Shown: positions 3,646 to 55,172 of the stretch, in pieces | How the letters are laid out: the number at the start of each line of letters is the position of its first letter | Position numbering within the stretch: position 1 is the first letter of the stretch | Origin: Escherichia coli | GTDB taxonomy: Bacteria; Pseudomonadota; Gammaproteobacteria; Enterobacterales; Enterobacteriaceae | Direction: 5' to 3' (one strand) | Assembly: GCF_046105845.1 (NCBI RefSeq) | Contig: NZ_CP151004.1 | Length of the DNA: 64,000 bases | Made by a program: the position numbers and the translations under genes | Notes under the pieces: model-generated | The model's database searches: none | Told to the model about the DNA's origin: nothing | What the model saw: the letters and a program-made list of their open reading frames with translations, nothing else

Positions 3646-3646
3646 C

Positions 3647-9104: not shown

Positions 9105-9118
9105 TCAATATTTATGAA

Positions 9119-9139
9119 CCTGCTTCGGCAGGTTTTTTT
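9119..9139 (+). terminator. Rho-independent terminator after repressor gene
   Basis: cctgc-ttcg-gcagg followed by TTTTTTT. Confidence 0.7.
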
Positions 9140-10135: not shown

Positions 10136-10200
10136 TATCGTTCTTAATTAACTGATTATTTATCTCATCACTGAATATCTTTATATAGTGAGGACTTATT

Positions 10201-11025
10201 ATGTCTCAGAACTTAGACGCAACCGCAATTAATCAAATCCATGCCCTTATTTCTGCTCAGGGTGTTAATGAAATTATCAGTAAGATTGGTGCCGATGCTG
10301 TGGTATTGCCTGAGAATTTCCGCATTCATGATCTGGAAAAATTTAATTTAAATCGCTTCCGTTTCCGTGGTGCGCTTTCCACTGCCAGCATCGATGACTT
10401 TACCCGTTATTCTAAAGATCTTGCAGATGAAGGCACCCGCTGCTTTATCGATGCTGATAATATGCGTGCCGTCAGTGTACTTAACCTGGGTACTATTGAT
10501 GAACCAGGTCACGCAGATAACACCGCCACTCTCAAACTGAAAAAGACAGCACCGTTCTCTGCCCTGTTGTCTGTTAACGGCGAGCGTAACTCCCAGAAGT
10601 CACTGGCAGAATGGATTGAAGACTGGGCCGACTACCTTGTGGGCTTTGATGCTAATGGTGACGCTATTCAGGCAACAAAAGCGGCTGCGGCAGTCCGTAA
10701 AATCACGATTGAAGCAAACCAGACCGCTGATTTTGAAGATAATGACTTCAGCGGCAAACGCTCCCTGATGGAATCTGTCGAAGCGAAGACCAAAGACATT
10801 ATGCCAGTGGCATTTGAAATTAAATGCGTTCCGTTTGAAGGTCTGAAAGAACGTCCGTTTAAATTACGCCTCAGCATTATCACTGGCGATCGTCCTGTAC
10901 TGGTTCTGCGCATTATTCAGCTGGAAGCGGTGCAGGAAGATATGGCTAACGAATTTCGTGATCTGCTTGTTGAGAAATTCAAAGACAGCAAAGTAGAAAC
11001 CTTTATTGGTACTTTCACCGCCTGA
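10201..11025 (+). CDS. yfdQ: YfdQ-like prophage protein
   Basis: 274 aa [24 protein letters not shown]...; matches my recollection of K-12 CPS-53 YfdQ. Confidence 0.75.
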
Positions 11026-31697: not shown

Positions 31698-33362
31698 TTA
31701 AAACGTTTCCCAATTCTCGCCGCTATCTGCCACGGCCATTTTACGCGGCGTAGCTGGCGTCACGGTTTTTACTACAGCCGATGTTTCACGCTGCTGTTGC
31801 TGCTGTTGCTGAATCCGGAACACTGCCACAGCTTCGGTCAGGCGACTGGCCTGCTCTTCCAGCGCGGCGGCGGCGGCGGCAGATTCTTCCACCAGCGCGG
31901 CGTTCTGTTGAGTTACCCGGTCCATCTCAGCAACCGCTAAGCCAACCTGATCGATACCACGGCTCTGCTCATCAGAAGCAGAAGCAATTTCGCCCATAAT
32001 GTCCGTCACGCGGGTCACGGCGCTGACAATCTCCGCCATTGTTTCCCCGGCGCTTTCGACCAGCGTAGAGCCAACATCCACTTTCCCCACCGAGTCTTCA
32101 ATCAGGCTTTTAATTTCACGAGCCGCCTGGGCGCTGCGCTGGGCCAGATTACGCACTTCTCCCGCGACCACCGCAAAACCGCGCCCTTGCTCACCCGCAC
32201 GCGCAGCCTCAACCGCGGCGTTCAAAGCCAGAATATTGGTCTGGAAGGCAATGCCGTCAATTACGCTGATAATATCGGCGATTTTCTGCGAACTGGTGGA
32301 GATATCGCGCATGGTCTGTACTACGTTATCCACCACTTTGCCGCCGCGTTGCGCCGTTTCAGAAGCACTTAACGCCAGATGGCTGGCCTGACGCGCATTC
32401 TCGGCGTTCTGTTTCACCGTTGCGGTCAGTTGCTCCATGCTGGCTGCCGTCTCTTCCAGCGAAGCGGCCTGTTGCTCGGTGCGCGAAGAGAGATCGTTAT
32501 TGCCGGTGGCGATTTCGCTGGCACCGCTATAAATGGCATTGGCCCCGTTGCGCACATCACCGACGGTACGCATCAGCTCTCCCTGCATATGGCGCAAACT
32601 CTCTGCCAGTTGCCCCATCTCATTAGAGCCATCCACCTCAATCGGTTTCACCAGATCGCCGCCTGCAATATGACGAATGCTGTCAATCAGGCGATTCATT
32701 GGCGCTACCAACGAGGCTTTAATACCGAACCAGACGGCGAAGATGACCGCCAGTACGACGATCATCACGCCCACCAGAATCCACATCGCCTGGCTGTAGG
32801 AGGCATTATTATCGCTGACGGCGATATCATAGAGCCGATCGTTTTGCTCCATGTAAGCCACATACTGCTTCTCGAAACCGTCCTGATATCCCTGGGTCGG
32901 CTGATCAAAGAACTCGTTGATTTTGCCTGCACCTAACAGTTGGATCAGCTCCGCCAGCGCATTGTGATAAATATCGTAATTACGTTTGATCTCTGACGCT
33001 GCGGCGGTGCTCTGACGCGGGTCACGCGGCAACGCTTCGTAATCCGCCCAGTTTTTTTCCGCCTGTTTCAGCGAAATACTGGCACTCTGCATTAGCTCAG
33101 CAACGGTTGAACCGCTACCAATATTATTCTGATCCATCATGTAGCGGATACCCGCGCGGTTGAGGGTGTTACGCGTCTGCAACAACGCAACCCAGCTGCC
33201 ATTCAGCGTGGATTGCTGCTGGCGAATGGTTTGTAAAACAGTGAAATTTTCTTTGTCATTCTTTAAGGCATTAAAGAACAGACCGCCTGATGTCAGTTGT
33301 AAAAGGCCAAAAACGGCCAAAACCAGCAGTAAGCTGGTCACAATTTTGATACGTTTTAACAT
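31698..33362 (-). CDS. tsr: Serine chemoreceptor Tsr (MCP I)
   Basis: 554 aa; HAMP and highly conserved MCP signalling domain; C-terminal NWETF pentapeptide; 7-Gln run. Confidence 0.95.
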
Positions 33363-33591
33363 GGTTTCTCTTTCCTGTGGACCGATGCAAGATTTTCGGC
33401 CTGGAAAGGAAAAACTTTATAGTCAACGTCATTATCACCGTCGAACATAATTCGTTTTGTTTCATTTTTGTACAAAACTAAGAGCGTCATGAATAAAAAA
33501 ATTAATCTTGTTTATTTATTTCACGCTATTTATCGCAATTTTGCACAATGATGCATCGTATGATGCGCGTTTTAAAGAAAGGATATCTGAT

Positions 33592-34134
33592 ATGTTAAAC
33601 CGTGATTTTGATCATCTATCAACCCTGCTCCATCTTTTTTTTGAGCGTGACGATATTTGCCAAAAGCTTAATATTATTGATCAAAACGAGATCACCGGGT
33701 GGGAAGTTTGGTTCCAGGTGGAGTTTGCTAATATGCTTTGCTCAACAGACCATGAATGGTGGCGTGAACAAACACTATCCTGTGATATGCGCAAAAAGCC
33801 CGAACGCCCCACCCTACGTACAGATTTTTTATTACGCAAAAAAGGCTGGGCACAAGATAGCTATATTGCGCTTGAAATTAAACAGAACAGAGATGCGACA
33901 AGTTGTGTTAAAAATATGATCGCAGACTTAGAGAAAAGCGCCAAAATTAAACGTTCTGAGCTTGATTTGCGTAGTTTCTGGACTTTAGGTATTACCCCGA
34001 TGATCGACAGAGAAAGACTGAACTCTCTCATCGACAGTTATTTAGATGAGAAATTCTATCTTACTAAATCTCGTAAAAAACACGTTTTACTTAAAGAAAT
34101 AAAAAATACACCATATTGCTATATTGTTATTTAA
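33592..34134 (+). CDS. Hypothetical low-GC protein, possible PD-(D/E)xK nuclease fold
   Basis: ORF 33508..34134; ATG at 33592 with AGGA RBS; 180 aa; E...D(FLL)...ALEIK spacing resembles PD-(D/E)xK motifs; AT-rich unlike flanks. Confidence 0.6.
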   Translation: MLNRDFDHLSTLLHLFFERDDICQKLNIIDQNEITGWEVWFQVEFANMLCSTDHEWWREQTLSCDMRKKPERPTLRTDFLLRKKGWAQDSYIALEIKQNRDATSCVKNMIADLEKSAKIKRSELDLRSFWTLGITPMIDRERLNSLIDSYLDEKFYLTKSRKKHVLLKEIKNTPYCYIVI

Positions 34135-34426
34135 CATTTATGGCATGAATATAATTTTTAGATGAGTAACACAACTGAGGGCTAAAACTCGCCTTGGTTG
34201 TGATCATCATCACATAAATAGCCTTCATAAACCTTGCTCAATACCGCTCAACCGCAAAACTGACCGCTTACGTCCCTAAAATAACCACTCAGTTATTTAC
34301 CTTACTTTACGCGCGCGTAACTCTGGCAACATCACTGCAGGATAGCGGTCAATTTACCTCCTCAAACGCAACGCAAACCTAGAACGGCTTCGGCCAACTA
34401 TTAATCAATACATGCCAGGTTTTACT

Positions 34427-36577
34427 ATGGATACTAAAAAGATATTCAAGCACATACCCTGGGTGATTCTCGGAATCATCGGTGCATTCTGCCTCGCGGT
34501 AGTTGCATTACGTCGGGGGGAGCACGTCAGCGCCCTGTGGATCGTGGTCGCCTCTGTGTCGGTGTATCTGGTGGCGTATCGCTACTACAGTCTGTACATC
34601 GCCCAGAAGGTGATGAAACTCGACCCCACGCGCGCGACGCCTGCGGTTATTAACAACGACGGTCTGAACTATGTTCCGACTAACCGTTACGTGTTGTTTG
34701 GTCACCACTTCGCCGCTATCGCCGGTGCTGGTCCGCTGGTTGGTCCGGTTCTCGCCGCGCAGATGGGCTACCTGCCTGGCACGCTGTGGCTGCTGGCGGG
34801 GGTAGTGCTGGCCGGTGCGGTACAGGACTTTATGGTGCTGTTTATCTCCTCTCGCCGTAACGGCGCATCTCTCGGTGAGATGATCAAAGAAGAGATGGGA
34901 CCAGTACCGGGGACTATCGCGCTGTTTGGCTGTTTCTTAATCATGATCATCATCCTCGCCGTCCTGGCGCTGATTGTGGTTAAAGCCCTGGCCGAAAGTC
35001 CGTGGGGTGTCTTCACCGTTTGCTCAACCGTACCGATTGCGCTGTTTATGGGTATCTACATGCGCTTTATCCGTCCGGGGCGTGTGGGTGAAGTCTCTGT
35101 CATTGGTATCGTGCTGCTGGTTGCCTCTATCTACTTCGGTGGCGTGATTGCTCACGATCCGTACTGGGGTCCGGCACTGACCTTTAAAGACACCACCATT
35201 ACCTTCGCGCTGATTGGCTATGCGTTTGTTTCCGCACTGCTGCCGGTGTGGCTGATCCTCGCACCGCGCGACTATCTGGCAACCTTCCTGAAAATCGGCG
35301 TTATCGTCGGCCTGGCGCTGGGTATCGTGGTGCTGAACCCGGAACTGAAAATGCCTGCGATGACCCAGTACATTGACGGTACTGGCCCGCTGTGGAAAGG
35401 CGCTCTGTTCCCGTTCCTGTTCATCACCATCGCCTGTGGTGCGGTATCTGGCTTCCACGCGCTGATCTCTTCCGGTACGACGCCGAAACTGCTGGCTAAC
35501 GAAACCGACGCGCGTTTCATTGGCTACGGCGCAATGCTGATGGAGTCCTTCGTGGCGATTATGGCGCTGGTTGCTGCGTCCATCATCGAACCGGGTCTTT
35601 ACTTCGCGATGAACACCCCGCCTGCTGGCCTTGGCATCACCATGCCTAACCTGCATGAAATGGGTGGCGAGAACGCGCCGATCATCATGGCGCAGCTGAA
35701 AGACGTTACCGCACACGCGGCAGCGACCGTCAGCTCCTGGGGCTTCGTGATTTCGCCAGAGCAGATCCTGCAAACCGCGAAAGACATTGGTGAGCCTTCT
35801 GTCCTGAACCGTGCAGGTGGTGCGCCGACGCTGGCGGTAGGTATCGCTCACGTGTTCCACAAAGTGCTGCCGATGGCTGACATGGGCTTCTGGTATCACT
35901 TCGGTATTCTGTTCGAAGCCCTGTTCATCCTGACCGCGCTGGATGCGGGTACCCGTTCTGGCCGCTTTATGCTGCAAGACCTGCTGGGTAACTTCATCCC
36001 GTTCCTGAAAAAAACCGACTCTCTGGTTGCCGGTATCATCGGTACTGCGGGCTGTGTGGGTCTGTGGGGCTACCTGCTGTATCAGGGCGTGGTCGATCCG
36101 CTGGGCGGCGTTAAGAGTCTGTGGCCGCTGTTCGGTATTTCCAACCAGATGCTGGCAGCCGTAGCGCTGGTACTGGGCACCGTTGTGCTGATTAAGATGA
36201 AGCGCACCCAATACATCTGGGTAACTGTTGTTCCGGCTGTATGGCTGCTTATCTGCACCACCTGGGCGCTGGGTCTGAAACTGTTCAGCACCAACCCGCA
36301 GATGGAAGGCTTCTTCTACATGGCAAGCCAGTACAAAGAGAAGATTGCTAACGGTACTGACCTGACGGCGCAGCAGATTGCCAACATGAACCACATCGTT
36401 GTGAATAACTACACCAACGCAGGTCTGAGTATTCTGTTCCTGATCGTGGTGTACAGCATCATCTTCTACGGTTTCAAAACCTGGCTTGCGGTGCGTAACA
36501 GCGACAAACGTACTGACAAAGAAACACCGTACGTTCCAATCCCGGAAGGCGGCGTGAAGATCTCTTCGCACCACTAA
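34427..36577 (+). CDS. btsT: Pyruvate/H+ symporter BtsT (CstA family)
   Basis: 716 aa from internal ATG (MDTKKIFKHIPWVILG...). Confidence 0.95.
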   Translation: MDTKKIFKHIPWVILGIIGAFCLAVVALRRGEHVSALWIVVASVSVYLVAYRYYSLYIAQKVMKLDPTRATPAVINNDGLNYVPTNRYVLFGHHFAAIAGAGPLVGPVLAAQMGYLPGTLWLLAGVVLAGAVQDFMVLFISSRRNGASLGEMIKEEMGPVPGTIALFGCFLIMIIILAVLALIVVKALAESPWGVFTVCSTVPIALFMGIYMRFIRPGRVGEVSVIGIVLLVASIYFGGVIAHDPYWGPALTFKDTTITFALIGYAFVSALLPVWLILAPRDYLATFLKIGVIVGLALGIVVLNPELKMPAMTQYIDGTGPLWKGALFPFLFITIACGAVSGFHALISSGTTPKLLANETDARFIGYGAMLMESFVAIMALVAASIIEPGLYFAMNTPPAGLGITMPNLHEMGGENAPIIMAQLKDVTAHAAATVSSWGFVISPEQILQTAKDIGEPSVLNRAGGAPTLAVGIAHVFHKVLPMADMGFWYHFGILFEALFILTALDAGTRSGRFMLQDLLGNFIPFLKKTDSLVAGIIGTAGCVGLWGYLLYQGVVDPLGGVKSLWPLFGISNQMLAAVALVLGTVVLIKMKRTQYIWVTVVPAVWLLICTTWALGLKLFSTNPQMEGFFYMASQYKEKIANGTDLTAQQIANMNHIVVNNYTNAGLSILFLIVVYSIIFYGFKTWLAVRNSDKRTDKETPYVPIPEGGVKISSHH

Positions 36578-37842: not shown

Positions 37843-38757
37843 TCACTCAAAATAGTCCATATCCAGTTTCGGCACCTTCAACAAACGTGAAGAAACCCCT
37901 ACTTCGTTTTCGATCATTAAGTGCACCAGGCGTTCCCCATCAACCAGCACCATACCCTCGACGGATTGGGCAAAGTCACGCGCCTGAGAAGTAAACCCAG
38001 AAGTGGTAATAAACACCCCACGTTTCGCTTTTTGCCCAGCCAGTGCGCCGTAAAATGCCTGTAATTCTGGCCTGCCTACAGTATTCTGCCAACGTTTTGC
38101 CTGAACATAAACTTTCTCCAGGCCAAGTTTATCAAGCGATATCACACCATCGATGCCACCATCTCCAGTACCGCCAACACGCTGCAAATCATCACGGTGG
38201 CCGCCATACCCCAGGCGATGCAAAACATCCAGAACAATGACTTCAAAGCGCGAAGGAGAAACCTGCAATAAGTTTTCCAGAACCTCATCAGCCACCGCAT
38301 CACGAAGCTCTTTTAGCGCCTGATCTAACCGATCGTCCGGGCTGCTCTTTGCAAGTTCTTCATGATCGGGAGAGTCGGCTTTCGGATCTAAATCGACGGC
38401 ATCCGGCCGTGACTTAAGTTTGACATTCACAAAAGCGAAGGCCAGATGGTTCGTCTCCTGCTCCGTCATTGGCTGGGGATGAGACGCAACCCAGTCAAAA
38501 CCCGCAGGAGTCAGGCACCATTTGCCACGCGACAAACTTTGCGACAACCCGGCACGTTTTAAACGGTCATGCGCCCAGCCTGCACGATTTTTATAAACAA
38601 GTTGTCCGCTGGTAATGACTTTCGCTCGCTGGCTGTCATCCAGTCCTAATGCATCCGCGGCAGCCTCATGAACATCACGCGCGGCTGCACCTTCCGGTTT
38701 TGTCGCCAGATAACGCAGAACAGGTTCAATAAATTTGTCATAGGTTGGAACCGTCAT
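37843..38757 (-). CDS. mrr: Type IV methyl-directed restriction endonuclease Mrr
   Basis: 304 aa MTVPTYDKFIEPVLRYLATKPEG...; PD-(D/E)xK region ...VISLDKLGLEKVYVQAKRW... Confidence 0.95.
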   Translation of the reverse strand: MTVPTYDKFIEPVLRYLATKPEGAAARDVHEAAADALGLDDSQRAKVITSGQLVYKNRAGWAHDRLKRAGLSQSLSRGKWCLTPAGFDWVASHPQPMTEQETNHLAFAFVNVKLKSRPDAVDLDPKADSPDHEELAKSSPDDRLDQALKELRDAVADEVLENLLQVSPSRFEVIVLDVLHRLGYGGHRDDLQRVGGTGDGGIDGVISLDKLGLEKVYVQAKRWQNTVGRPELQAFYGALAGQKAKRGVFITTSGFTSQARDFAQSVEGMVLVDGERLVHLMIENEVGVSSRLLKVPKLDMDYFE

Positions 38758-38944: not shown

Positions 38945-41900
38945 ATGATGAATAAATCCAACTTCGAATTCCTGAAGGGCGTCAACGACTTCACTTATGC
39001 CATCGCCTGTGCGGCGGAAAATAACTACCCGGATGATCCCAACACGACGCTGATTAAAATGCGTATGTTTGGCGAAGCCACAGCGAAACATCTTGGTATG
39101 TTACTCAACATCCCCCCTTGTGAGAATCAACACGATCTCCTGCGCGAACTCGGCAAAATCGCCTTCGTTGATGACAACATTCTCTCTGTATTCCACAAAT
39201 TACGCCGCATTGGTAACCAGGCGGTGCACGAATATCATAACGATCTCGACGATGCCCAGATGTGCCTGCGGCTAGGCTTCCGTCTGGCTGTCTGGTACTA
39301 CCGTCTGGTCACCAAAGATTATGACTTCCCGGTGCCGGTATTTGTGTTGCCGGAACGTGGCGAAAACCTCTATCACCAGGAAGTGCTGACGCTAAAACAA
39401 CAGCTTGAACAGCAGGCGCGAGAAAAAGCGCAGACTCAGGCAGAAGTCGAAGCGCAACAGCAGAAGCTGGTTGCCCTGAACGGCTATATCGCCATTCTGG
39501 AAGGCAAACAGCAGGAAACAGAAGCGCAAACCCAGGCTCGCCTTGCGGCGCTGGAAGCACAGCTTGCCGAGAAGAACGCGGAACTGGCAAAACAGACCGA
39601 ACAGGAACGTAAGGCTTACCACAAAGAAATTACCGATCAGGCCATCAAGCGCGCACTCAACCTTAGCGAAGAAGAGAGCCGCTTCCTGATTGACGCGCAA
39701 CTGCGTAAAGCAGGCTGGCAGGCCGATAGCAAAACCCTGCGCTTCTCCAAAGGCGCACGCCCGGAACCCGGCGTCAATAAAGCCATTGCCGAATGGCCGA
39801 CCGGGAAAGATGAAACGGGTAATCAGGGCTTTGCGGATTATGTGCTGTTTGTCGGCCTCAAGCCCATCGCGGTGGTAGAGGCGAAACGTAAAAATATCGA
39901 CGTTCCCGGCAAGCTCAATGAGTCGTATCGCTACAGCAAATGCTTCGATAATGGCTTCCTGCGGGAAACCTTGCTTGAGCATTACTCGCCGGATGAAGTG
40001 CATGAAGCGGTGCCGGAGTATGAAACCAGCTGGCAGGACACCAGCGGCCAACAACGGTTTAAAATCCCCTTCTGCTACTCGACCAACGGGCGCGAATACC
40101 GCGCAGCAATGAAGACTAAAAGTGGCATCTGGTATCGCGACGTGCGTGATACCCGCAATATGTCGAAAGCCTTACCCGAGTGGCATCGCCCGGAAGAGCT
40201 GCTGGAAATGCTCGGCAGCGAACCGCAAAAACAGAATCAGTGGTTTGCCGATAACCCTGGCATGAGCGAGCTGGGCCTGCGTTATTATCAGGAAGATGCT
40301 GTCCGCGCGGTGGAAAAGGCAATCGTCAAGGGTCAACAAGAGATCCTGCTGGCGATGGCGACCGGTACCGGTAAAACCCGTACCGCAATTGCCATGATGT
40401 TCCGCCTGATCCAGTCCCAGCGTTTTAAACGCATTCTCTTCCTTGTCGATCGCCGTTCTCTTGGCGAGCAGGCGCTGGGGGCGTTTGAAGATACGCGTAT
40501 TAACGGCGACACCTTCAACAGCATTTTCGACATTAAAGGTCTGACGGATAAATTCCCGGAAGACAGCACCAAAATTCACGTTGCCACCGTACAGTCGCTG
40601 GTGAAACGCACCCTGCAATCAGATGAACCGATGCCGGTGGCCCGTTACGACTGTATCGTCGTCGATGAAGCGCATCGCGGCTATATTCTCGATAAAGAGC
40701 AGACCGAAGGCGAGCTGCAATTCCGCAGCCAGCTGGATTACGTCTCTGCCTACCGTCGCATTCTCGATCACTTCGATGCGGTAAAAATCGCCCTCACCGC
40801 CACCCCGGCGCTGCATACGGTACAGATTTTCGGCGAGCCGGTTTACCGTTATACCTACCGTACCGCGGTTATCGACGGGTTTCTGATCGACCAGGATCCG
40901 CCTATTCAGATCATCACCCGCAACGCCCAGGAGGGGGTTTATCTCGCCAAAGGCGAGCAGGTTGAGCGCATCAGCCCACAGGGGGAAGTGATCAACGACA
41001 CCCTGGAAGACGATCAGGATTTTGAGGTCGCCGACTTTAACCGTGGCCTGGTGATCCCGGCGTTTAACCGCGCCGTCTGTAACGAACTCACCAACTACCT
41101 TGATCCGACCGGGTCACAAAAAACGCTGGTCTTCTGCGTCACCAATGCCCATGCCGATATGGTGGTGGAAGAGTTGCGTACCGCGTTCAAGAAAAAGTAT
41201 CCGCAACTGGAGCACGACGCGATCATCAAGATCACCGGTGATGCCGATAAAGACGCGCGCAAAGTGCAGACCATGATCACCCGCTTCAATAAAGAGCGGC
41301 TGCCCAATATCGTGGTAACCGTCGACCTGCTGACGACCGGCGTCGATATTCCGTCGATCTGTAACATCGTGTTCCTGCGTAAAGTACGCAGCCGTATTCT
41401 GTACGAGCAGATGAAAGGCCGCGCCACGCGCTTATGCCCGGACGTGAATAAAACCAGCTTTAAGATTTTCGACTGTGTCGATATCTACAGCACGCTGGAG
41501 AGCGTCGACACCATGCGTCCGGTGGTGGTGCGTCCGAAGGTGGAACTGCAAACGCTGGTCAATGAAATTACCGATTCAGAAACCTATAAAATCACCGAAG
41601 CGGACGGCCGTAGCTTTGCCGAGCACAGCCATGAACAACTGGTGGCGAAGCTCCAGCGCATCATCGGCCTGGCCACGTTTAACCGTGATCGCAGCGAAAC
41701 GATAGATAAACAGGTGCGTCGTCTGGATGAGCTATGCCAGGACGTGGCGGGGGTGAGCTTTAACGGCTTCGCCTCGCGCCTGCGGGAAAAAGGACCGCAC
41801 TGGAGCGCCGAAGTCTTTAACAAACTGCCTGGCTTTATCGCCCGCCTGGAAAAGCTGAAAACCGACATCAATAGCCTGAATGATGCGCCGATCTTCCTCG

Positions 41901-42457
41901 ATATTGACGATGAAGTGGTGAGCGTAAAATCGCTGTACGGTGATTACGACACGCCGCAGGATTTCCTCGAAGCCTTTGACTCGCTGGTGCAACGTTCCCC
42001 GAACGCGCAACCGGCATTGCAGGCGGTGATCAATCGCCCGCGCGATCTCACCCGTAAAGGGCTGGTTGAACTCCAGGAGTGGTTTGACCGCCAGCACTTT
42101 GAGGAATCTTCCCTGCGCAAAGCGTGGAAAGAGACGCGCAATGAAGATATCGCTGCCCGGCTGATTGGACATATTCGCCGCGCTGCGGTGGGCGATGCGC
42201 TGAAACCGTTTGAGGAACGTGTCGATCACGCGCTGACGCGCATTAAGGGCGAAAACGACTGGAGCAGCGAGCAATTAAGCTGGCTCGATCGTTTAGCGCA
42301 GGCGCTGAAAGAGAAAGTGGTGCTCGACGACGATGTCTTCAAAACCGGCAACTTCCACCGTCGCGGCGGGAAGGCGATGCTGCAAAGAACCTTTGACGAT
42401 AATCTCGACAACCTGCTTGATAAATTCAGCGATTATATCTGGGACGAGCTGGCCTGA
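38945..42457 (+). CDS. hsdR: Type I restriction enzyme R subunit HsdR (type IA, EcoKI-like)
   Basis: 1170 aa; SF2 motor motifs MATGTGKT and VVDEAHRG. Confidence 0.95.
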   Translation: MMNKSNFEFLKGVNDFTYAIACAAENNYPDDPNTTLIKMRMFGEATAKHLGMLLNIPPCENQHDLLRELGKIAFVDDNILSVFHKLRRIGNQAVHEYHNDLDDAQMCLRLGFRLAVWYYRLVTKDYDFPVPVFVLPERGENLYHQEVLTLKQQLEQQAREKAQTQAEVEAQQQKLVALNGYIAILEGKQQETEAQTQARLAALEAQLAEKNAELAKQTEQERKAYHKEITDQAIKRALNLSEEESRFLIDAQLRKAGWQADSKTLRFSKGARPEPGVNKAIAEWPTGKDETGNQGFADYVLFVGLKPIAVVEAKRKNIDVPGKLNESYRYSKCFDNGFLRETLLEHYSPDEVHEAVPEYETSWQDTSGQQRFKIPFCYSTNGREYRAAMKTKSGIWYRDVRDTRNMSKALPEWHRPEELLEMLGSEPQKQNQWFADNPGMSELGLRYYQEDAVRAVEKAIVKGQQEILLAMATGTGKTRTAIAMMFRLIQSQRFKRILFLVDRRSLGEQALGAFEDTRINGDTFNSIFDIKGLTDKFPEDSTKIHVATVQSLVKRTLQSDEPMPVARYDCIVVDEAHRGYILDKEQTEGELQFRSQLDYVSAYRRILDHFDAVKIALTATPALHTVQIFGEPVYRYTYRTAVIDGFLIDQDPPIQIITRNAQEGVYLAKGEQVERISPQGEVINDTLEDDQDFEVADFNRGLVIPAFNRAVCNELTNYLDPTGSQKTLVFCVTNAHADMVVEELRTAFKKKYPQLEHDAIIKITGDADKDARKVQTMITRFNKERLPNIVVTVDLLTTGVDIPSICNIVFLRKVRSRILYEQMKGRATRLCPDVNKTSFKIFDCVDIYSTLESVDTMRPVVVRPKVELQTLVNEITDSETYKITEADGRSFAEHSHEQLVAKLQRIIGLATFNRDRSETIDKQVRRLDELCQDVAGVSFNGFASRLREKGPHWSAEVFNKLPGFIARLEKLKTDINSLNDAPIFLDIDDEVVSVKSLYGDYDTPQDFLEAFDSLVQRSPNAQPALQAVINRPRDLTRKGLVELQEWFDRQHFEESSLRKAWKETRNEDIAARLIGHIRRAAVGDALKPFEERVDHALTRIKGENDWSSEQLSWLDRLAQALKEKVVLDDDVFKTGNFHRRGGKAMLQRTFDDNLDNLLDKFSDYIWDELA

Positions 42458-42658
42458 CACGTATACACTTCATCCTTCAGGCTACCTCTGCGTTGGCTGC
42501 GCTCGTTCACCCCGGTCACGTACTTCTGTACGCTCCCGGGGATTCACTCACTTGCCGCCTTGATGCAACCTGAATGATTTTGTGTATATTACCCTCGGCA
42601 ATTTCTTTTTCTGCGGCCCCAAACAATGCGGGCCGCTGCTTAATTTACGGAACTCACA

Positions 42659-44248
42659 ATGAACAATAACGATCTGGTCGCGAAGCTGTGGAAGCTGTGC
42701 GACAACCTGCGCGATGGCGGCGTTTCCTATCAAAACTACGTCAATGAACTCGCCTCGCTGCTGTTTTTGAAAATGTGTAAAGAGACCGGACAGGAAGCGG
42801 AGTACCTGCCGGTAGGCTACCGCTGGGATGATCTGAAATCCCGTATCGGTCAGGAGCAGTTGCAGTTCTACCGTAACCTGCTGGTACATCTGGGCGCCGA
42901 CAATCAAAAGCTGGTGCAGGCGGTGTTCCAGAACGTCAACACCACCATTACCCAGCCGAAACAGTTGACCGAGCTGGTCAGCAATATGGATTCACTGGAC
43001 TGGTACAACGGTGCGCACGGTAAGTCGCGCGATGACTTCGGCGATATGTACGAAGGGCTGCTGCAGAAGAACGCCAACGAAACCAAGTCTGGCGCGGGCC
43101 AGTACTTCACCCCGCGTCCGCTGATTAAAACCATTATTCATCTGCTGAAACCGCAGCCGCGTGAAGTGGTGCAGGATCCGGCAGCAGGTACGGCGGGCTT
43201 TTTGATTGAAGCCGACCGCTACGTTAAGTCGCAAACCAATGATCTGGACGACCTTGATGGCGACACGCAGGATTTCCAGATCCACCGCGCCTTTATCGGC
43301 CTCGAACTGGTGCCCGGCACCCGTCGTCTGGCGCTGATGAACTGCCTGCTACACGATATTGAAGGCAACCTCGACCACGGCGGCGCAATCCGTCTGGGCA
43401 ACACCCTGGGTAGCGACGGTGAAAATCTGCCGAAGGCGCATATTGTCGCCACTAACCCGCCGTTTGGCAGCGCCGCAGGCACCAACATTACCCGCACCTT
43501 TGTCCACCCGACCAGCAACAAACAGTTGTGCTTTATGCAGCATATTATCGAAACGCTGCATCCCGGCGGTCGTGCGGCGGTAGTGGTGCCAGATAACGTG
43601 CTGTTTGAAGGCGGCAAAGGCACCGACATCCGTCGTGACCTGATGGATAAGTGTCATCTGCATACCATCCTGCGTCTGCCGACCGGTATTTTTTACGCTC
43701 AGGGCGTGAAAACTAACGTGCTGTTCTTTACCAAAGGGACGGTGGCGAACCCGCATCAGGATAAGAACTGCACCGATGATGTGTGGGTGTACGACCTGCG
43801 TACCAATATGCCGAGCTTCGGCAAGCGCACGCCGTTTACCGACGAGCATTTGCAGCCGTTTGAGCGCGTGTATGGCGAAGATCCCCACGGTTTAAGCCCG
43901 CGCACTGAAGGTGAATGGAGTTTTAACGCCGAAGAGACGGAAGTTGCCGACAGCGAAGAGAACAAAAACACCGATCAGCATCTGGCTACCAGCCGCTGGC
44001 GCAAGTTCAGCCGCGAGTGGATCCGCACCGCGAAATCCGATTCGCTGGATATCTCCTGGCTGAAAGATAAAGACAGTATTGATGCCGACAACCTGCCGGA
44101 GCCGGATGTATTAGCGGCAGAAGCGATGGGTGAACTGGTGCAGGCGCTGGGCGAACTGGATGCGCTGATGCGTGAACTGGGGGCGAGCGATGAGGCCGAT
44201 TTGCAGCGTCAGTTGCTGGAAGAAGCATTTGGTGGGGTGAAGGAATGA
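42659..44248 (+). CDS. hsdM: Type I restriction-modification M subunit HsdM (N6-adenine methyltransferase)
   Basis: 529 aa; SAM motif DPAAGTAGF and catalytic NPPF. Confidence 0.95.
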   Translation: MNNNDLVAKLWKLCDNLRDGGVSYQNYVNELASLLFLKMCKETGQEAEYLPVGYRWDDLKSRIGQEQLQFYRNLLVHLGADNQKLVQAVFQNVNTTITQPKQLTELVSNMDSLDWYNGAHGKSRDDFGDMYEGLLQKNANETKSGAGQYFTPRPLIKTIIHLLKPQPREVVQDPAAGTAGFLIEADRYVKSQTNDLDDLDGDTQDFQIHRAFIGLELVPGTRRLALMNCLLHDIEGNLDHGGAIRLGNTLGSDGENLPKAHIVATNPPFGSAAGTNITRTFVHPTSNKQLCFMQHIIETLHPGGRAAVVVPDNVLFEGGKGTDIRRDLMDKCHLHTILRLPTGIFYAQGVKTNVLFFTKGTVANPHQDKNCTDDVWVYDLRTNMPSFGKRTPFTDEHLQPFERVYGEDPHGLSPRTEGEWSFNAEETEVADSEENKNTDQHLATSRWRKFSREWIRTAKSDSLDISWLKDKDSIDADNLPEPDVLAAEAMGELVQALGELDALMRELGASDEADLQRQLLEEAFGGVKE

Positions 44249-45615
44249 GTGCGGAGAAATTGCCGGAGGGGTGGGTTGAGTGTGAATTATCCGAACTCGG
44301 TAACATTGTTACAGGGAAAACTCCCAGTACCAAGGAGCCTTCCAATTTTGGAGGCAGCATTCCTTTCATTAAACCAGGCGATCTTGATCTCGGTGGCTAT
44401 ATCATGAATACCGCCGATACTCTGACGGAGAAAGGGTTATCTCTTGTCCCCACTCTTCCTGCCAATTCAGTCGTTGTGACGTGTATTGGAAATTTAGGAA
44501 AAGTTGGAATTACCGCTAAAAAATCAGCATCTAATCAACAAATAAATGCATTGATCCCGTCAGAAAAGCTAAATGTAAAATTTGTTTATTACCAAATTTT
44601 AACATTAAAACCATGGTTAGAGTCTCAATCAGCAGCTACTACAATTGCGATTGTGAACAAGAGCAAATTTTCTCAGGCACCATTTAAATTCCCGTCGCTT
44701 GCCGAACAAAAAATCATCACTGAAAAACTCGATACGCTGCTGGCGCAGGTAGACAGCACCAAAGCACGTCTTGAGCAAATCCCACAAATCCTGAATCGTT
44801 TTCGTCAGGCTATTCTAGCTAATGCTGTGGAAGGAAAATTGACCGACGAATGGCGAGCCGGAAAATGTTATATTACAGAAATCAAAAAAATATCTGATAT
44901 TATTCAGAATGCTCAAGTCGGATTAGTTCGTTCAGCTTCAGATCAAAGCGAAATATGCACTCAAAAAATGAGAACGCCTTATATAAAAATGAATAACATT
45001 CACAATGTTCTCGGAACAAATTTAGAAAAACTCGCTTATGTCAACTGTGATAGCTATGAACTGGAAAAATATAGATTAAAAAATGGAGATTGGCTCTTTA
45101 ATACACGAAATAGTTATGAGTTAGTTGGTAAATCCTGTGTCTGGAATGGATGTAGCAATGCTGTATATAATAATAATATATTAAGAGTTAGACTAAAAGA
45201 AAACTACAATTCTGTTTTTTTAGATTATTGGTTTCACTCGTTCTATGGAGTGAGCATGCTTAATAGTATTAAATCCGCAACAACAAATGTTGCTGCGATA
45301 TATCAGAAAGAACTCTTAAGTAAAAGTGTTCCATTCCCCCCCCTTCCCGAACAAGCCGAGATTGTTCGCCGCGTCGAACAACTCTTCGCCTACGCCGACA
45401 CCATAGAAAAACAGGTCAACAACGCCTTAGCCCGCGTTAACAACCTGACGCAATCCATCCTGGCAAAAGCGTTCCGTGGTGAACTCACCGCCCAGTGGCG
45501 GGCCGAAAACCCGGATTTAATCAGCGGAGAAAACAGCGCCGCCGCGTTGCTGGAAAAAATCAAAGCTGAACGCGCAGCCAGCGGGGGTAAAAAAGCCTCG
45601 CGTAAAAAATCCTGA
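44245..45615 (+). CDS. hsdS: Type I R-M specificity subunit HsdS, apparently non-EcoKI TRDs
   Basis: 456 aa; ATGA overlap with hsdM; conserved N-terminal, central (LAEQKIITEKLDTLLAQVDSTKAR) and C-terminal regions flank two low-GC variable TRDs. Confidence 0.9.
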   Translation: MSAEKLPEGWVECELSELGNIVTGKTPSTKEPSNFGGSIPFIKPGDLDLGGYIMNTADTLTEKGLSLVPTLPANSVVVTCIGNLGKVGITAKKSASNQQINALIPSEKLNVKFVYYQILTLKPWLESQSAATTIAIVNKSKFSQAPFKFPSLAEQKIITEKLDTLLAQVDSTKARLEQIPQILNRFRQAILANAVEGKLTDEWRAGKCYITEIKKISDIIQNAQVGLVRSASDQSEICTQKMRTPYIKMNNIHNVLGTNLEKLAYVNCDSYELEKYRLKNGDWLFNTRNSYELVGKSCVWNGCSNAVYNNNILRVRLKENYNSVFLDYWFHSFYGVSMLNSIKSATTNVAAIYQKELLSKSVPFPPLPEQAEIVRRVEQLFAYADTIEKQVNNALARVNNLTQSILAKAFRGELTAQWRAENPDLISGENSAAALLEKIKAERAASGGKKASRKKS

Positions 45616-46184: not shown

Positions 46185-46345
46185 CAGCGTTTACTCCCGG
46201 TTAACCACCGGGAGCCTTCCACTGACTCAATAGAAACTTTCCCCCTCAGTAAATATTTACCTGCCTGATTGTGCAGTAAAAATCTATTGTTTCAGTACGT
46301 TGCGAAAGCGATAATAGAGGCTTAGCAATGAGGAAGGCACATCTT

Positions 46346-47725
46346 ATGGAATCAATTCAAGCCTGGATTGAAAAATTTATTGAGCAAGCACAGCAACAAA
46401 GTTCGCAATCCACTAAAGATTATCCAACGTCTTACCGTAACCTGCGAGTAAAAGTGAGTTTCGGTTATGGCAATTTTACATCTATTCCCTGGTTTGCATT
46501 TCTTGGAGAAGGTCAGGAAGTTTCTAACGGTATATATCCCGTTATTCTCTATTATAAAGATTTTGATGAGTTGGTTTTGGCTTATGGTATAAGTGACACG
46601 AATAAACCACATGCACAATGGCACTTTTCTTCTGACATACCTAAAACAATCGCAGAGTATTTCCAGGCAACTTCAGGTGTATATCCTAAAAAATACGGAC
46701 AGTCCTATTACGCCTGTTCCCAAAAAGTCTCACAGGGTCTTGATTATACCCGGCTTGCCTCCATGCTGGACAACATAATCAACGACTATAAATTAATATT
46801 TAATTCTGGCAAGAGTGTTATTCCACCTATGTCAAAAACTGAATCATACTGTCTGGAAGATGCGTTAAATGATTTGTTTATCCCTGAAACCACAATAGAG
46901 ACGATACTCAAACGATTAACCATCAAAAAAAATATTATCCTCCAGGGGCCGCCCGGCGTTGGAAAAACCTTTGTTGCACGCCGTCTGGCTTACTTGCTGA
47001 CAGGAGAAAAGGCTCCGCAACGCGTCAATATGGTTCAGTTCCATCAATCTTATAGCTATGAGGATTTTATACAGGGCTATCGTCCGAATGGTGTCGGCTT
47101 CCGACGTAAAGACGGTATATTTTACAATTTTTGTCAGCAAGCTAAAGAGCAGCCAGAGAAAAAGTATGTTTTTATTATAGATGAAATTAATCGTGCCAAT
47201 CTCAGTAAAGTATTTGGCGAAGTGATGATGTTAATGGAACATGATAAACGAGGTGAAAACTGGTCTGTTCCCTTAACCTACTCCGAAAACGATGAAGAAC
47301 GATTCTATGTCCCGGAGAATGTTTATATTATCGGTTTAATGAATACTGCCGATCGCTCTCTGGCCGTTGTTGATTATGCCCTGCGCAGACGATTTTCTTT
47401 CATAGATATTGAGCCAGGTTTTGATACACCACAGTTCCGGAATTTTTTACTGAATAAAAAAGCAGAACCTTCATTTGTTGAGTCTTTATGCCAAAAAATG
47501 AACGAGTTAAACCAGGAAATCAGCAAAGAGGCCACTATCCTTGGGAAAGGATTCCGCATTGGGCATAGTTACTTCTGCTGTGGGTTGGAAGATGGCACCT
47601 CTCCGGATACGCAATGGCTTAATGAAATTGTGATGACGGATATCGCCCCTTTACTCGAAGAATATTTCTTTGATGACCCCTATAAACAACAGAAATGGAC
47701 CAACAAATTATTAGGGGACTCATAG
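46346..47725 (+). CDS. mcrB: 5-methylcytosine-specific restriction enzyme McrB (GTPase subunit)
   Basis: 459 aa from internal ATG with AGGAAGG RBS; AAA+ Walker A GPPGVGKT. Confidence 0.95.
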   Translation: MESIQAWIEKFIEQAQQQSSQSTKDYPTSYRNLRVKVSFGYGNFTSIPWFAFLGEGQEVSNGIYPVILYYKDFDELVLAYGISDTNKPHAQWHFSSDIPKTIAEYFQATSGVYPKKYGQSYYACSQKVSQGLDYTRLASMLDNIINDYKLIFNSGKSVIPPMSKTESYCLEDALNDLFIPETTIETILKRLTIKKNIILQGPPGVGKTFVARRLAYLLTGEKAPQRVNMVQFHQSYSYEDFIQGYRPNGVGFRRKDGIFYNFCQQAKEQPEKKYVFIIDEINRANLSKVFGEVMMLMEHDKRGENWSVPLTYSENDEERFYVPENVYIIGLMNTADRSLAVVDYALRRRFSFIDIEPGFDTPQFRNFLLNKKAEPSFVESLCQKMNELNQEISKEATILGKGFRIGHSYFCCGLEDGTSPDTQWLNEIVMTDIAPLLEEYFFDDPYKQQKWTNKLLGDS

Positions 47726-48771
47726 TGGAACAGCCCGTGATACCTGTCCGTAATATCTATTACATGCTTACCTATGCATGGGGTTATTTACAGGACATTA
47801 AGCAGGCCGACCTTGAAGCCATACCCGGTAACAATCTTCTTGATATCCTGGGGTATGTATTAAATAAAGGGGTTTTACAGCTTTCACGCCGAGGGCTTGA
47901 GCTTGATTACAATCCTAATACCGAGATCATTCCTGGCATCAAAGGGCGAATAGAGTTTGCTAAAACAATACGCGGCTTCCATCTTAATCATGGGAAAACC
48001 GTCAGTACTTTTGATATGCTTAATGAAGACACGCTGGCTAACCGAATTATAAAAAGCACATTAGCCATATTAATTAAGCATGAAAAGTTAAATTCAACTA
48101 TCAGAGATGAAGCTCGTTCACTTTATAGAAAATTACCGGGCATTAGCACTCTTCATTTAACTCCGCAGCATTTCAGCTATCTGAACGGCGGAAAAAATAC
48201 GCGTTATTATAAATTCGTTATCAGTGTCTGCAAATTCATCGTCAATAATTCTATTCCAGGTCAAAACAAAGGACACTACCGTTTCTATGATTTTGAAAGA
48301 AACGAAAAAGAGATGTCATTACTTTATCAAAATTTTCTTTTTGAATTTTGCCGTCGTGAATTACCATCTGTAAATACAACTCGCCCACATTTAAAATGGG
48401 ATGCATCAAGCATATCGGATCAATCACTTAGCTTGTTACCTCGAATGGAAACTGACATCACCATTAACTCATCAGGGAAAATACTTATCGTTGATGCCAA
48501 ATACTATAAAAGCATTTTTTCACGACGAATGGGTACAGAAAAGTTTCATTCTCAAAATCTATATCAACTGATGAGTTACTTATGGTCGTTAAAGCCTGAA
48601 AATGGCGAAAAAACAGGGGGGTTATTAATATACCCACACGTAGACACCTCAGTGAAACATCGTTATAAAATTAATGGCTTCGATATTGGCTTGTGTACCG
48701 TCAATTTAGGTCAGGAATGGCCGTGTATACATCAAGAATTACTCGACATTTTCGGTGAATATCTCAAATAA
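47725..48771 (+). CDS. mcrC: McrBC endonuclease subunit McrC
   Basis: 348 aa from GTG overlapping mcrB stop by 1 nt (TAGTG); PD-(D/E)xK region ...DITINSSGKILIVDAKYYKS. Confidence 0.9.
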   Translation: MEQPVIPVRNIYYMLTYAWGYLQDIKQADLEAIPGNNLLDILGYVLNKGVLQLSRRGLELDYNPNTEIIPGIKGRIEFAKTIRGFHLNHGKTVSTFDMLNEDTLANRIIKSTLAILIKHEKLNSTIRDEARSLYRKLPGISTLHLTPQHFSYLNGGKNTRYYKFVISVCKFIVNNSIPGQNKGHYRFYDFERNEKEMSLLYQNFLFEFCRRELPSVNTTRPHLKWDASSISDQSLSLLPRMETDITINSSGKILIVDAKYYKSIFSRRMGTEKFHSQNLYQLMSYLWSLKPENGEKTGGLLIYPHVDTSVKHRYKINGFDIGLCTVNLGQEWPCIHQELLDIFGEYLK

Positions 48772-48827: not shown

Positions 48828-51800
48828 TCAGGAGGCGATCACCTCCACCAGCACATCCGTTGCCCAACTCTCTTCGCTGTTGGCGACATTCCCTTCCTTG
48901 CAGGCCTGAGCCATTTTGACTAACTGGAAAGAAACGTCATCGCGGAAATCAAAGTAATGCCATTGCGATGCAAAGTTGATGCGCCAGTAGCCCATCCCCT
49001 GATCGAAGCGGATCTTCAATACCTGACCATCATCAAAAGTCACCGTCAGTTTACGATGGTGAGGGATATCGCGCGGCGAGTCGAACACCGTCAGTTCTAC
49101 CGGCCTGCCCAGCGCAGCAGCAAACCACTGATCAGCGAAATCCTGAAAATCCGCTATGCTCATCCAGTCATGGAAAGGCCGGTTACCGGGGCGATCTTTA
49201 TCTTTAAATAGCGTATCCAGCGTCACTTCAGCGCCATCGGTCAGCTTTGTTTTTAGCGGTCTCAAAATTGATCCCAACAACGCCAGCGCAACCGGGTTTT
49301 GCAGATAGCGATCGGTATAGTGAACGCCGGTAATTCGCGTGTTATTCATCAGTGACTGCGCTTCTTCATGGTCGTTAAACAGCACGTCCCAGAAGCGTTG
49401 CCCAAACTGCGACAGTGGTCCATTCAACTGTTTGTGGATCTGAATGTCTTTGACCCGCTCGACAGCGTTGGCGGCTTTAGCCGGCAGAATAAATTCGTTC
49501 AGCTCTACCGTTTTATAGCCGAGACTACGTACCACCAGTTCGTCATTCAGGTGCCACTCCGGCCCCGGAATCGTTGCCTGCTGGCTACGAGAGGCCAGCG
49601 TCATCACGCGATCGGCAAAGGTGACCTGAGCAACGATCGGTAATTTCAAATCCTGTTCAACATGGCATAGCCGCACACCCAGCGCAGTAAATTGCGATAG
49701 TTCGTGCAACAGGTCCGGGTCATCCACTCCCGCAGGAATAACAAGATCGACCTCGACGTTGTCTTTTAGCCGATAGTTCTGAACCGCCGCGCGGAACTGA
49801 CGTGCGTATAAATCCCACTCATTGGGCGCGCCGGTCATCCACAGGGTGAGCTTTTCAGCGCCTTCGTTAATCGCCCGGCGAATCGTATCGCCAATGGCGC
49901 CAGGGCAGTAGCGGGCATCCGGCAGCGAGAATGTCTCTTCATCCGGTAAACCGATGTAATACGTGAAGTCATCGCCAAGCCAGGCCAGCGCCGCTTTGCG
50001 ATCCAGCAAATCGTGATCGTGGCGAGTCTGGGAATCAAGCAGGCATTCACTACATGCAGTCTCACAATGGCGGCAGCCTAACTGTTTCACCATTCCCTGC
50101 AATATAGCTTCAATGTGTACCGGTGCGCTGGAGGCAAAACCTGCACCACCGCTGATCACATCATAAAGCTGTACGGCTAATACCGATTGCCCATCCTCCA
50201 GTCTGACCGGACGTACAGAATAGCCGAGTTCTGCGGCGGAGATACCCAGAACGCCCGCCAGCGCCTGACGCAGAGCAACCGCCAGAGTCATGGCAACAAT
50301 CCGCCCCTCCTCTGTGTTATCTGGCAGATACTCGCCGTTTTGCGGTTTGCGCAGAACCATTTCAAAGACATCGGTGCGCGCCAGTGCGCCCAGGGTGACG
50401 TTCTTCATGAGTGCCGTCGAACCGGGGCAAATCAGACGATGATTCTGGCTATCGCGGTCCGCTTTACCCGGACGCGGTGGATAGTGAGCTTCCATGCTTT
50501 TCGGCGCATCATTTTCATTCAGCATCGACTCAGCACGGCCACAGCTCAGACACAATGCATAACCGTGTCCACCTTCCCCCAAACTTTGCTGGAAAACATG
50601 CCCATCAGCCCCAGAAGCCATATAACCCATTAGCGGGTTAGGCAACGGTACGGGCTCTGCTTTAACAAAGACCCACGCGGGGACAACCGGGACGAATTTC
50701 ATGGTTTCAATATTGTTCGTTACCGGAGCGTGTGCATCGGTGACAAACCCGGCAGGCTGCAGCACCTGACGGCGATTATCCATGATTATTTTTTCGCCGC
50801 AGGCGCTATTGGAGCAAAAGAGCATCCCGGAACTGCTCATCCCCTCTTCATAGCCAATGGTCCCGCATTTGTGACAGCGCCAGGCGCAATCCAGACGCTG
50901 GGCTTCATTGGTATCAGCATTAATGTTGTGCCAGTGCAGTGAGACACCGGCAGAGCGGAAGACACGGCCATCAAGAATGATCTCTGCTCCCGGTGCATAT
51001 TCACGAATGGCAACACCGAGGTTACGGGAAGGTAATCCTTTATAACGGGAGACGTTATCTTCACGGTCCTTTTTATCACGACTTTTTTGCGATTTTTCGC
51101 GGATATAATCTTCCATTGTGAAGTTATCAAACGTCACTACATCTGTCGGGAAACCGTATCCCGGCAAGAAGGTTCTGGCAGCTAGATCGCGCAGCAGATA
51201 CTCGCCACAGTGCCGTTTCTTCTCCAGCTCTATGCGCTTACGATAAGGCGTTTGCGGCTGCGACTCACGCTCCTGTGTCACGAGATCGCGATAAACGGAG
51301 AGCCACCGCTGCTGCAGGAAGGTGATCGCGTTGATTGTTTTATCCCGCAGATATTCGGCTCTTGCACCATGCAACGCCGTACCTTTCACCAGCCGTTCCA
51401 GCGCCGTGTCGATATCAAGAACAGGGCGTTCCAGCCAGACTTTGAAGCGTTCGCATTTTGACTGCCCGTCATCTTCACCGAAAAACCAGAGGCTATCGAG
51501 GCTGGTTTTCTCTTTATCGGTTTCGCCAATAACGTTACATAAAAAGTCGGACAGTAATAATGCATTGACGTGACGTTGCACCAGTCGGGCGGAGTTCATC
51601 GCGACCATGGGTGCCGGGATCATGGTTTCAAATGGCCAGAGCGGGTTGGCAAAAACCTGCTGGTCGTGTGGGTTACCTTTACATAGGGTGTAAGAGATCG
51701 CACGTGATTCTTTACTACGCCCGGCTCGCCCGGCGCGCTGTAAATAGTTGGCCGGATGTGGCGGTACGTTGTTCATTACCACCGCAGTAATGCCCCCGAT

Positions 51801-54800: not shown

Positions 54801-55172
54801 GGTTACCACCACTGAATGTTTCTTTTCCAGCAAAGCTTTCCAACTGGCTAACTGGTGTGTAAAAGGCTTCCAGTCAGCACCAAATCGGTACCGGCCATTA
54901 CTCTGATCATCCAGTGAATCAACCACTGCTTTGCTCAACAATGCGTTGCCTTCCGTCAGACTGCGCATCGTGTGGTTTGACTCCTTCCAGCCAAACATTT
55001 GCTGGAATACCGGAGAAGCAAGGAATGAGCCCGGTTTCCCACAATCAGCCCCCATTTGTTGCGCGAGATGTTCACGCAGCTGCGGGTTGGTTACGCCCAT
55101 GATACTGAGCGTTGCTTCAGTTGAACGAGACAACGATTGTTCAATAAGTGACGAAAAATAGCGTGTAGTCAT
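48828..55172 (-). CDS. Large SF2 helicase with C-terminal Cys clusters (DUF1998-like); candidate DruE of a Druantia type III-like system
   Basis: 2114 aa; Walker [16 protein letters not shown] (aa ~125-135), DEAH box IVLDEAHTY (~262-269), motif III ATSAT, motif [10 protein letters not shown]; Cys pairs CHKCG...CSNSACG and CLSCG. Confidence 0.85.

Follow-up and report, generated by a model that had tools for sequence, protein, structure and literature searches.

What does a solitary, AT-rich gene do between tsr and btsT in the chromosome of Escherichia coli? The question is raised by a 64,000-nucleotide stretch of contig NZ_CP151004.1 (NCBI RefSeq assembly GCF_046105845.1), hereafter the window, in which the spacer separating these two genes (positions 33363..34426, 1064 bp when the RefSeq start of btsT is used) contains only one substantial open reading frame (ORF), at 33592..34134 on the plus strand. 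This ORF, here designated gene X, encodes a protein of 180 amino acids (aa) that is predicted to be a stand-alone nuclease of the PD-(D/E)xK superfamily. The most economical reading of the results presented below, and the likeliest of those considered, though it stops a little short of probable, is that gene X is an autonomous single-gene defence nuclease. This reading rests on (i) an intact, selected, single-domain nuclease fold, (ii) the lack of a partner, (iii) single-gene mobility, and (iv) recurrence at sites where accessory, conflict-related genes accumulate.

The ORF itself is already known: it is annotated without function in RefSeq records and protein collections (the RefSeq coding sequence is WP_001558494.1, "hypothetical protein", and the same label was met in all sources examined). 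What is new is the assignment of a fold in which the catalytic residues are invariant, the recognition of an unnamed family with defined limits, and the pattern of single-gene mobility. A preliminary description of the locus had reported an AT-rich ORF of 180 aa with a good ribosome-binding site, and this is correct (a Shine-Dalgarno sequence, GAAAGGA, lies at 33577-33583 on the plus strand, 8 nt before the ATG of gene X); the spacer length of 1065 bp given there has to be corrected to 1064 bp.

Fold, active site and family of the gene X protein

An AlphaFold model built from an alignment of 21 sequences (mean pLDDT 88.4, pTM 0.86) comprises two N-terminal helices, followed by a helix (residues 38-50), three strands (54-64, 74-83 and 91-98), a further helix (102-116) and a final strand (126-136). 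This order of elements is that of the canonical alpha-beta-beta-beta-alpha-beta core of the PD-(D/E)xK superfamily. Comparison with 111 non-identical homologs revealed that W37, E38, W40, Q42, E44, E59, D78, K97, D112 and K115 are invariant and that E95 is retained in all but one (110/111); the resulting family signature is W-E-x-W-x-Q-x-E ... D ... E-x-K ... D-x-x-K. Residues E38, E44, D78, E95 and K97 (codons 33703-33705, 33721-33723, 33823-33825, 33874-33876 and 33880-33882, respectively) occupy the expected structural elements of the model, i.e. a glutamate in helix 1, an acidic residue on strand 2 and E-x-K on strand 3. The E...D...ExK spacing that had first suggested a restriction-endonuclease-like fold is thus borne out by the model as well as by the near-invariance of D78 (within TDFLL) and E95-x-K97 (within ALEIKQ). 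The gene X protein is very likely an active nuclease.

Word-indexed searching recovered only 39 gene X clusters. A profile search of 1.84 billion protein representatives yielded 322 clusters at E<=1e-3 (198 at E<=1e-10), nearly all of which are 170-200 aa in length and aligned end to end, i.e. are single-domain proteins. Neither the gene X protein nor any of 80 family members matched a Pfam family at E<=0.001; the nearest one was TnsA-like_N (PF08722), with an E value of 0.1 for gene X and with 8 of the 80 members at E<=0.1. A search of NCBIfam with the gene X protein gave no match, and PHROGs gave only matches at E~0.1 to families of unknown function. The family profile produced only a chance match among PDB sequences (a ribosomal protein, E 1.3), BFVD returned only weak, generic PD-(D/E)xK matches with TM-scores below 0.5, and all AFDB50 neighbours carry the name "uncharacterized protein" or generic labels. 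A survey of the published literature on O157 locus tags (which had to be guessed), on the tsr/yjiY locus and on comparable prophage nucleases found nothing specific to gene X. Within the well-known PD-(D/E)xK superfamily, the roughly 320 clusters that include gene X form an unnamed family. In a neighbour-joining tree of the proteins a phage clade is separated from a mainly cellular clade, and the E. coli protein is nested among those of Enterobacterales.

Distribution, age and selection of gene X

Gene X was detected in 362 of 5426 complete E. coli genomes, always as a single chromosomal copy with the full spacer context; it is therefore not universal, and its codon usage is unusual, the GC content at third positions being 36% as against 69% in btsT (37.6% for gene X as a whole). 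The great majority of the carriers (358/362) possess an allele about 90% identical in DNA to that of the window and typified by serotypes O157:H7 and O55:H7, to which most of the sampled carriers belong, along with unrelated isolates. The allele of the window was found, at an identity of at least 99%, in two complete genomes only. Within a larger collection both exact E. coli proteins occur on hundreds of contigs, and their cluster includes Escherichia marmotae and Escherichia ruysiae.

Comparison of the window allele with the O157-type allele gave a dN of 0.019 and a dS of 0.68 (dN/dS 0.028). Since dS between the same strains is only 0.04-0.10 in the flanking genes tsr, btsT and lgoT, the alleles of gene X must have diverged long before the diversification of E. 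coli. The low dN/dS, the 322 cluster representatives and the RefSeq coding sequence together indicate that the ORF is more than a product of chance; gene X is a real and old gene under strong purifying selection. The arrangement tsr-X-btsT is also present in several Citrobacter species and in Phytobacter, and in Franconibacter gene X adjoins tsr. Between E. coli and Citrobacter the gene X proteins are 79% identical, compared with 86% for Tsr and 95% for BtsT, which fits either a gene long established here and repeatedly lost, or one exchanged by way of its flanks.

Two side observations concern divergence and decay. Between E. coli and Citrobacter portucalensis dS amounts to 0.52-0.62 for btsT, yjiX and yjiA and to 1.25-1.39 for tsr and lgoT; the lower values on the btsT side of the hot spot may reflect exchange between the genera or a stronger constraint on codons. 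The gene X match covers 542 bp in E. coli N3 and 530 bp in E. coli O55:H7 USDA5905, compared with the full 543 bp, which suggests a frameshift and a 13-bp deletion, respectively. Split ORFs were also observed at five further loci of the family, and occasional decay thus seems to be ongoing.

Alternative contents of the tsr-btsT spacer

The spacer of the window was aligned with that of K-12 and with that of one O157-type strain. K-12 has no gene at this position: its spacer measures 377 bp, and 89 bp stand where the window has 778 bp. The first 58 bases past tsr (33363..33420), a conserved block that holds the leader and promoter of this minus-strand gene, are identical to K-12. Reading of this block revealed a sigma-28-type promoter match on the minus strand, composed of TAAAGTTT (33412-33419), 11 nt and GCCGAAAA (33393-33400); the FliA consensus is TAAAGTTT-N11-GCCGATAA. 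Identity with K-12 stops one base past this match. Homology restarts at 34199, with a CRP-like palindrome, TGTGATCATCATCACA (34199..34214, plus strand; TGTGATATGAATCACA in K-12), a putative CRP site by comparison with the consensus TGTGA-N6-TCACA. The promoter region of btsT, with a direct repeat ACCGCTCA / ACCGCTTA (34243..34270, plus strand), follows intact on the 3' side and is identical in K-12; the repeat presumably corresponds to the BtsR (YehT) boxes of the published yjiY promoter, which it resembles.

The variable cassette between these two borders (33421..34198) has a GC content of 36%, compared with 49% for the whole window, and the content falls to 33-36% across the spacer. Local alignment of the 778-bp cassette with the 89 bp of K-12 gave a score of 18, whereas shuffled sequences scored 20.5 +/- 2.5, and the K-12 segment was therefore rejected as a remnant of the cassette. 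As the two segments share no detectable similarity, the gene X segment is one of several alternative contents of the interval between the tsr and btsT promoters, and not a clean insertion. The low GC content noted in the preliminary description holds, but the simple recent insertion proposed there does not, given the non-homologous alternatives of 778 and 89 bp, the dS of 0.68 between alleles and the same locus in Citrobacter and Phytobacter. Non-coding DNA upstream of gene X is poorly conserved between the E. coli alleles. Searches of positions 33300-34500 detected no terminal direct or inverted repeats of a transposable element and no intrinsic terminator.

Further fillings were observed upstream of btsT in E. 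coli strains XH993, AUSMDU00014361 and TCM3e1, in which tsr is replaced by the hpa (4-hydroxyphenylacetate) cluster or by an island encoding amino-acid deaminase and D-aminoacylase. The left side of btsT is thus a recombination hot spot of a general kind, at which the gene content varies. The one complete genome examined with the gene X allele of the window, that of E. coli GF43, has a TRAP transporter operon (1526-4302 of the extracted locus) on the upstream side of tsr, in the place taken by lgoT in the window; the DNA to the left of tsr thus differs between carriers of the window-type allele.

Genomic contexts across the family

Genes were called at 80 loci taken from species-representative genomes and at 54 taken from viral contigs, and the five genes on either side of gene X were then clustered. 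Over 137 loci this clustering revealed no recurrent partner gene beyond local synteny, in agreement with the initial view of gene X as a solitary gene; a conserved methylase, antitoxin or helicase was sought among the neighbours and rejected, as none was recovered. The GC content of gene X is about 8 points below that of its surroundings at 122 of 125 loci of the family.

In all 42 viral contigs of the phage clade gene X is immediately divergent from TerS, which is followed by TerL and the portal gene, an order confirmed by PHROG assignments. At eight Pseudomonas (pro)phage loci it lies two to four genes from a TerL of a different terminase type, and in a P2-like Vibrio prophage it adjoins the portal gene. 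Among phages with a TerL at least 61% identical and with enough upstream DNA, gene X was present in 21 and absent in 25; it was therefore rejected as a core gene of the TerS-adjacent lineage (absent in 25 of 46 close relatives). The slot of phages lacking gene X is filled by other opposite-strand genes, mostly unknown, and in two contigs by a gene for a 606-aa OLD-family nuclease (PADLOC Old, 4.7e-75). A recurrent opposite-strand pair (about 171-191 aa and 135-136 aa; phrog_20749 / phrog_2336, of unknown function) occupies the TerS slot in five viral contigs and is another candidate system.

Gene X is also found as a one-gene integron cassette. In Vibrio genomosp. F10 attC sites at 460-582 and 1153-1274 enclose the ORF (608-1150). 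They are repeats of about 120 bp spaced 692 bp apart, with TAAC...GTTA ends as in Vibrio attC sites, and are taken to be such from their spacing and from the likeness of their ...TAAC / GTTA... ends to the V. cholerae repeat. Gene X is likewise a one-gene cassette within the arrays of Colwellia and V. hepatarius. Such cassettes imply that gene X is mobilised alone, and presumably that it works alone. The E. coli copy is not recognisable as a cassette, no flanking repeats having been found around it. In the integron of V. cholerae, 18% of the tested cassettes of unknown function conferred phage resistance (10.1101/2024.07.02.601686); none of the nucleases described in that study (Epona, Divona, Damona, Sirona and Nemetona) is recognisably a member of the gene X family (10.1101/2024.07.02.601686).

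Several further copies have neighbours related to conflict or mobility. In Serratia fonticola gene X shares an integrase island with genes for JukA and a type I HsdR, and at one Xenorhabdus locus it directly follows a type I HsdR gene; in Xenorhabdus bovienii gene X stands beside a cI/cro remnant, and in Pectobacterium it resides on an element with a relaxase. In Marinospirillum alkaliphilum gene X adjoins a retron-type reverse transcriptase (RT) of 259 aa (best PADLOC match RT_I-B, 6e-23). At this last locus (8685-10540, between dus and queG) gene X is divergent and is separated by 332 bp from a 93-aa ORF, which is followed by the RT gene; this could be a small islet of two systems, or gene X could be a retron effector.

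Comparison with known systems

Small type IIP restriction enzymes (the BglII / BamHI / BstYI / OkrAI group and R.SwaI) are among the closest known systems, although their identity to the gene X protein is only 7-11%. Type II enzymes are typically idiosyncratic and bound to a cognate methylase, whereas gene X forms one conserved family over many genera; the methyltransferase of a type II restriction-modification system was found neither in the E. coli spacer and its flanks nor adjoining gene X at the 137 loci. Comparably close (8-9% identity) are the nuclease domains of Wolbachia CinB/CidB, which are related to Pfam PDDEXK_9. These domains are parts of toxins of 650-730 aa that have an antidote protein, whereas gene X encodes a free protein of 180 aa with no partner. 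The N-terminal catalytic domain of TnsA (PF08722) represents the sole Pfam family that nears significance, and TnsA appears as a UniProt label on some relatives. An identification of gene X as the TnsA of a Tn7 element was rejected: none of the 80 members matched at E<=0.001, the C-terminal domain of TnsA is lacking, and there are no tnsB/C/D genes or Tn7 ends nearby.

Among PD-(D/E)xK defence nucleases, no PADLOC or Pfam model of the Shedu SduA, NucC or Mrr families matched gene X; SduA and Mrr have additional sensor or reader domains and NucC has cyclic-nucleotide partner genes, whereas gene X has neither. Type IV enzymes are solitary, like gene X, but they usually contain a separate modification-reader domain; the gene X protein is single-domain, and no PADLOC type IV model matched it. 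In its location gene X resembles Old of phage P2 and other prophage "moron" cargo, since it too lies in a variable slot that borders the packaging module, and runs opposite to the late genes. Old belongs to an unrelated protein family, but it fills the same slot in related phages.

Possible functions of gene X

The proposal that we regard as the most economical is that the gene X protein acts autonomously, without a partner protein, as a metal-dependent endonuclease of the PD-(D/E)xK fold that cleaves DNA, and that this one gene protects the cell, or a prophage resident in it, against incoming phages or other foreign DNA. The protein would cut DNA, with foreign DNA as its probable target. Because no methyltransferase and no immunity gene accompany it, the host would have to be spared either by tight silencing or by the choice of substrate, which might be a modified base, a DNA end, or an intermediate of replication or packaging. 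Silencing would fit the AT-rich composition of gene X and the lack of a consensus promoter.

A number of observations weigh against a role in defence. No known defence family matches gene X: PADLOC-DB v2.0.0, which covers systems described up to 2023, gave only one match, weak and partial, to a model for orphan methyltransferases (E 2.4e-4, 64 of 444 positions), and among about 20 alternative cargo proteins of the phage slot Old was the only known defence gene. The means by which the protein would spare host DNA are not visible, and a protein of 180 residues could hardly accommodate a sensor or a modification-reader domain as well. Many cellular copies have no defence neighbour, as in Acinetobacter (prpB-prpC-(acnD)-X) and Pasteurellaceae (zwf-pgl-X-gnd), and in Billgrantia and an Alteromonadaceae genome gene X stands alone among housekeeping genes. 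The tree is roughly taxonomic within Enterobacterales, with a locus common to Escherichia, Citrobacter and Phytobacter, which would fit a long-resident cellular gene. Searches by tblastn gave no match either for three family members among 50,697 phage records or for the E. coli protein among 72,556 plasmids. Finally, no sigma-70 consensus promoter was found in 33300-34500, a region that includes the DNA upstream of gene X.

Other functions were weighed against the same evidence. A selfish endonuclease of the homing or addiction type would cut "empty" alleles or resist its own loss and would spread by recombination in the flanks, with no benefit to the host; a homing endonuclease of the PD-(D/E)xK type, I-Ssp6803I, exists. 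This would account for the presence/absence polymorphism that several families show at constant positions between conserved genes, for the terminase-adjacent position (a classic one for free-standing homing endonucleases), for the patchiness among close phage relatives (21 with and 25 without gene X) and for the many naturally transformable hosts (Acinetobacter, Pasteurellaceae, Neisseria, Vibrio). We nevertheless consider it unlikely, since the E. coli alleles differ by non-homologous replacement (778 bp in place of 89 unrelated bases) and have no recognisable target insertion, and since gene X in the phage slot opposes the packaging genes and alternates with other cargo, which is the pattern of a moron and not of a homing gene. 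Moreover, the single locus is stable across genera with a divergence similar to that of its flanks, and no isolated lytic phage among the phage records carries gene X. The proposal that gene X encodes a cellular nuclease of DNA repair or recombination (e.g. a structure- or mismatch-specific one), i.e. an old accessory housekeeping gene of Gammaproteobacteria lost by most lineages, would agree with the strong purifying selection, the roughly taxonomic tree, the lack of a partner gene and the family-specific fixed loci in Enterobacteriaceae, Acinetobacter and Pasteurellaceae, amid housekeeping genes with which gene X is sometimes co-oriented. It is similarly doubtful for a gene that 93% of complete E. 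coli genomes lack, that is patchy everywhere and consistently AT-rich relative to its hosts, and that is found in integron cassettes and prophage cargo, which are not typical homes of repair genes.

Less likely again is a function on behalf of the phage, in which the protein would degrade host or competitor DNA, counter host defence or aid DNA processing at packaging, the chromosomal copies being leftovers of decayed prophages. The constant proximity to TerS in the phage clade (42/42), the position two to four genes from TerL in the Pseudomonas phage group and the cI/cro remnant beside gene X in Xenorhabdus point in this direction. More than half of the closely related phages dispense with gene X, however, its orientation is against late transcription, and the copies of E. 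coli, Citrobacter, Acinetobacter and Pasteurellaceae are intact and selected with no phage genes nearby. We give least weight to the suggestion that gene X encodes either a toxin on its own, with an antitoxin that escaped notice (a small RNA or a gene further away), or a catalytically dead DNA-binding protein, even though either would explain a solitary nuclease with no visible host protection. The toxin reading of the preliminary description is weakened, as gene X is accompanied by neither an antitoxin nor an immunity gene: no neighbour is conserved over the 137 loci, an Rfam search of the spacer matched no family (though a novel small RNA may have escaped it), conservation between the alleles is poor in the non-coding DNA before gene X, and the one-gene integron cassettes, of which that of Vibrio contains the ORF only, leave no room for a partner. 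A dead binding protein is at odds with the conservation of every catalytic residue.

For the preferred explanation, i.e. an autonomous defence nuclease, a wider form can be proposed with somewhat more reserve: gene X may be the founding E. coli member of an unnamed, minimal (about 180 aa) and partner-free PD-(D/E)xK family of single-gene anti-phage systems; its members, shared among integron cassettes, prophage slots and chromosomal hot spots in Gamma- and Betaproteobacteria, would discriminate foreign from host DNA with neither a methyltransferase nor a separate sensor domain. If gene X does protect against phages, it would be among the smallest self-contained defence nucleases known, and the question would arise of how an enzyme of 180 residues that has no methylase, immunity protein or sensor domain avoids its own chromosome. 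Such a role would also assign a function to a gene labelled "hypothetical protein" everywhere examined and would provide a third line of evidence beside the integron cassettes and the prophage slots. The presence of gene X in O157:H7 and O55:H7 and its absence from K-12 make the latter a natural null background for gain-of-function experiments. Should the role not be defence, the family would still represent an uncharacterised, widely distributed and strongly selected nuclease.

Neighbouring genes and the downstream defence island

The spacer had been placed at the border of a defence island. An island is indeed present 3.7 kb downstream of gene X, but three core genes (btsT, yjiX and yjiA) intervene, and the defence genes extend from 3.7 to 24 kb downstream. 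Their order beyond btsT-yjiX-yjiA is Mrr, a type I restriction-modification system, a McrBC-sized gene pair and Druantia III. The first of these is an Mrr-type type IV enzyme (37843-38757), which is followed by the type I system (38945-45615), consisting of hsdR/hsdM and an hsdS-sized ORF. The pair at 46328-48771 (465 aa and 358 aa) is a candidate McrB/McrC by size, which no model confirms: in PADLOC the first protein gave weak "type II REase" matches and the second none. The segment 37843-48771 corresponds to the classical immigration-control region. The Druantia type III system is intact, with DruE3 (48828-55172, 2114 aa) and DruH3 (55185-58523, 1112 aa) on the minus strand, both matched end to end; at this position K-12 has only remnants.

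Two minor features of the genes bordering the spacer were also observed. The start of btsT is placed at 34427 on the basis of the RefSeq annotation of an almost identical locus, and the mechanically predicted ORF opens 15 nt upstream, at the ATG at 34412 (MPGFT-MDTKK...). On the other side, tsr (31698-33362, minus strand, start at 33362) encodes a protein of 554 aa with a run of seven glutamines near the C-terminus, compared with 1656 bp (551 codons) for tsr of K-12 and GF43, and the difference in length may reside in this glutamine repeat.

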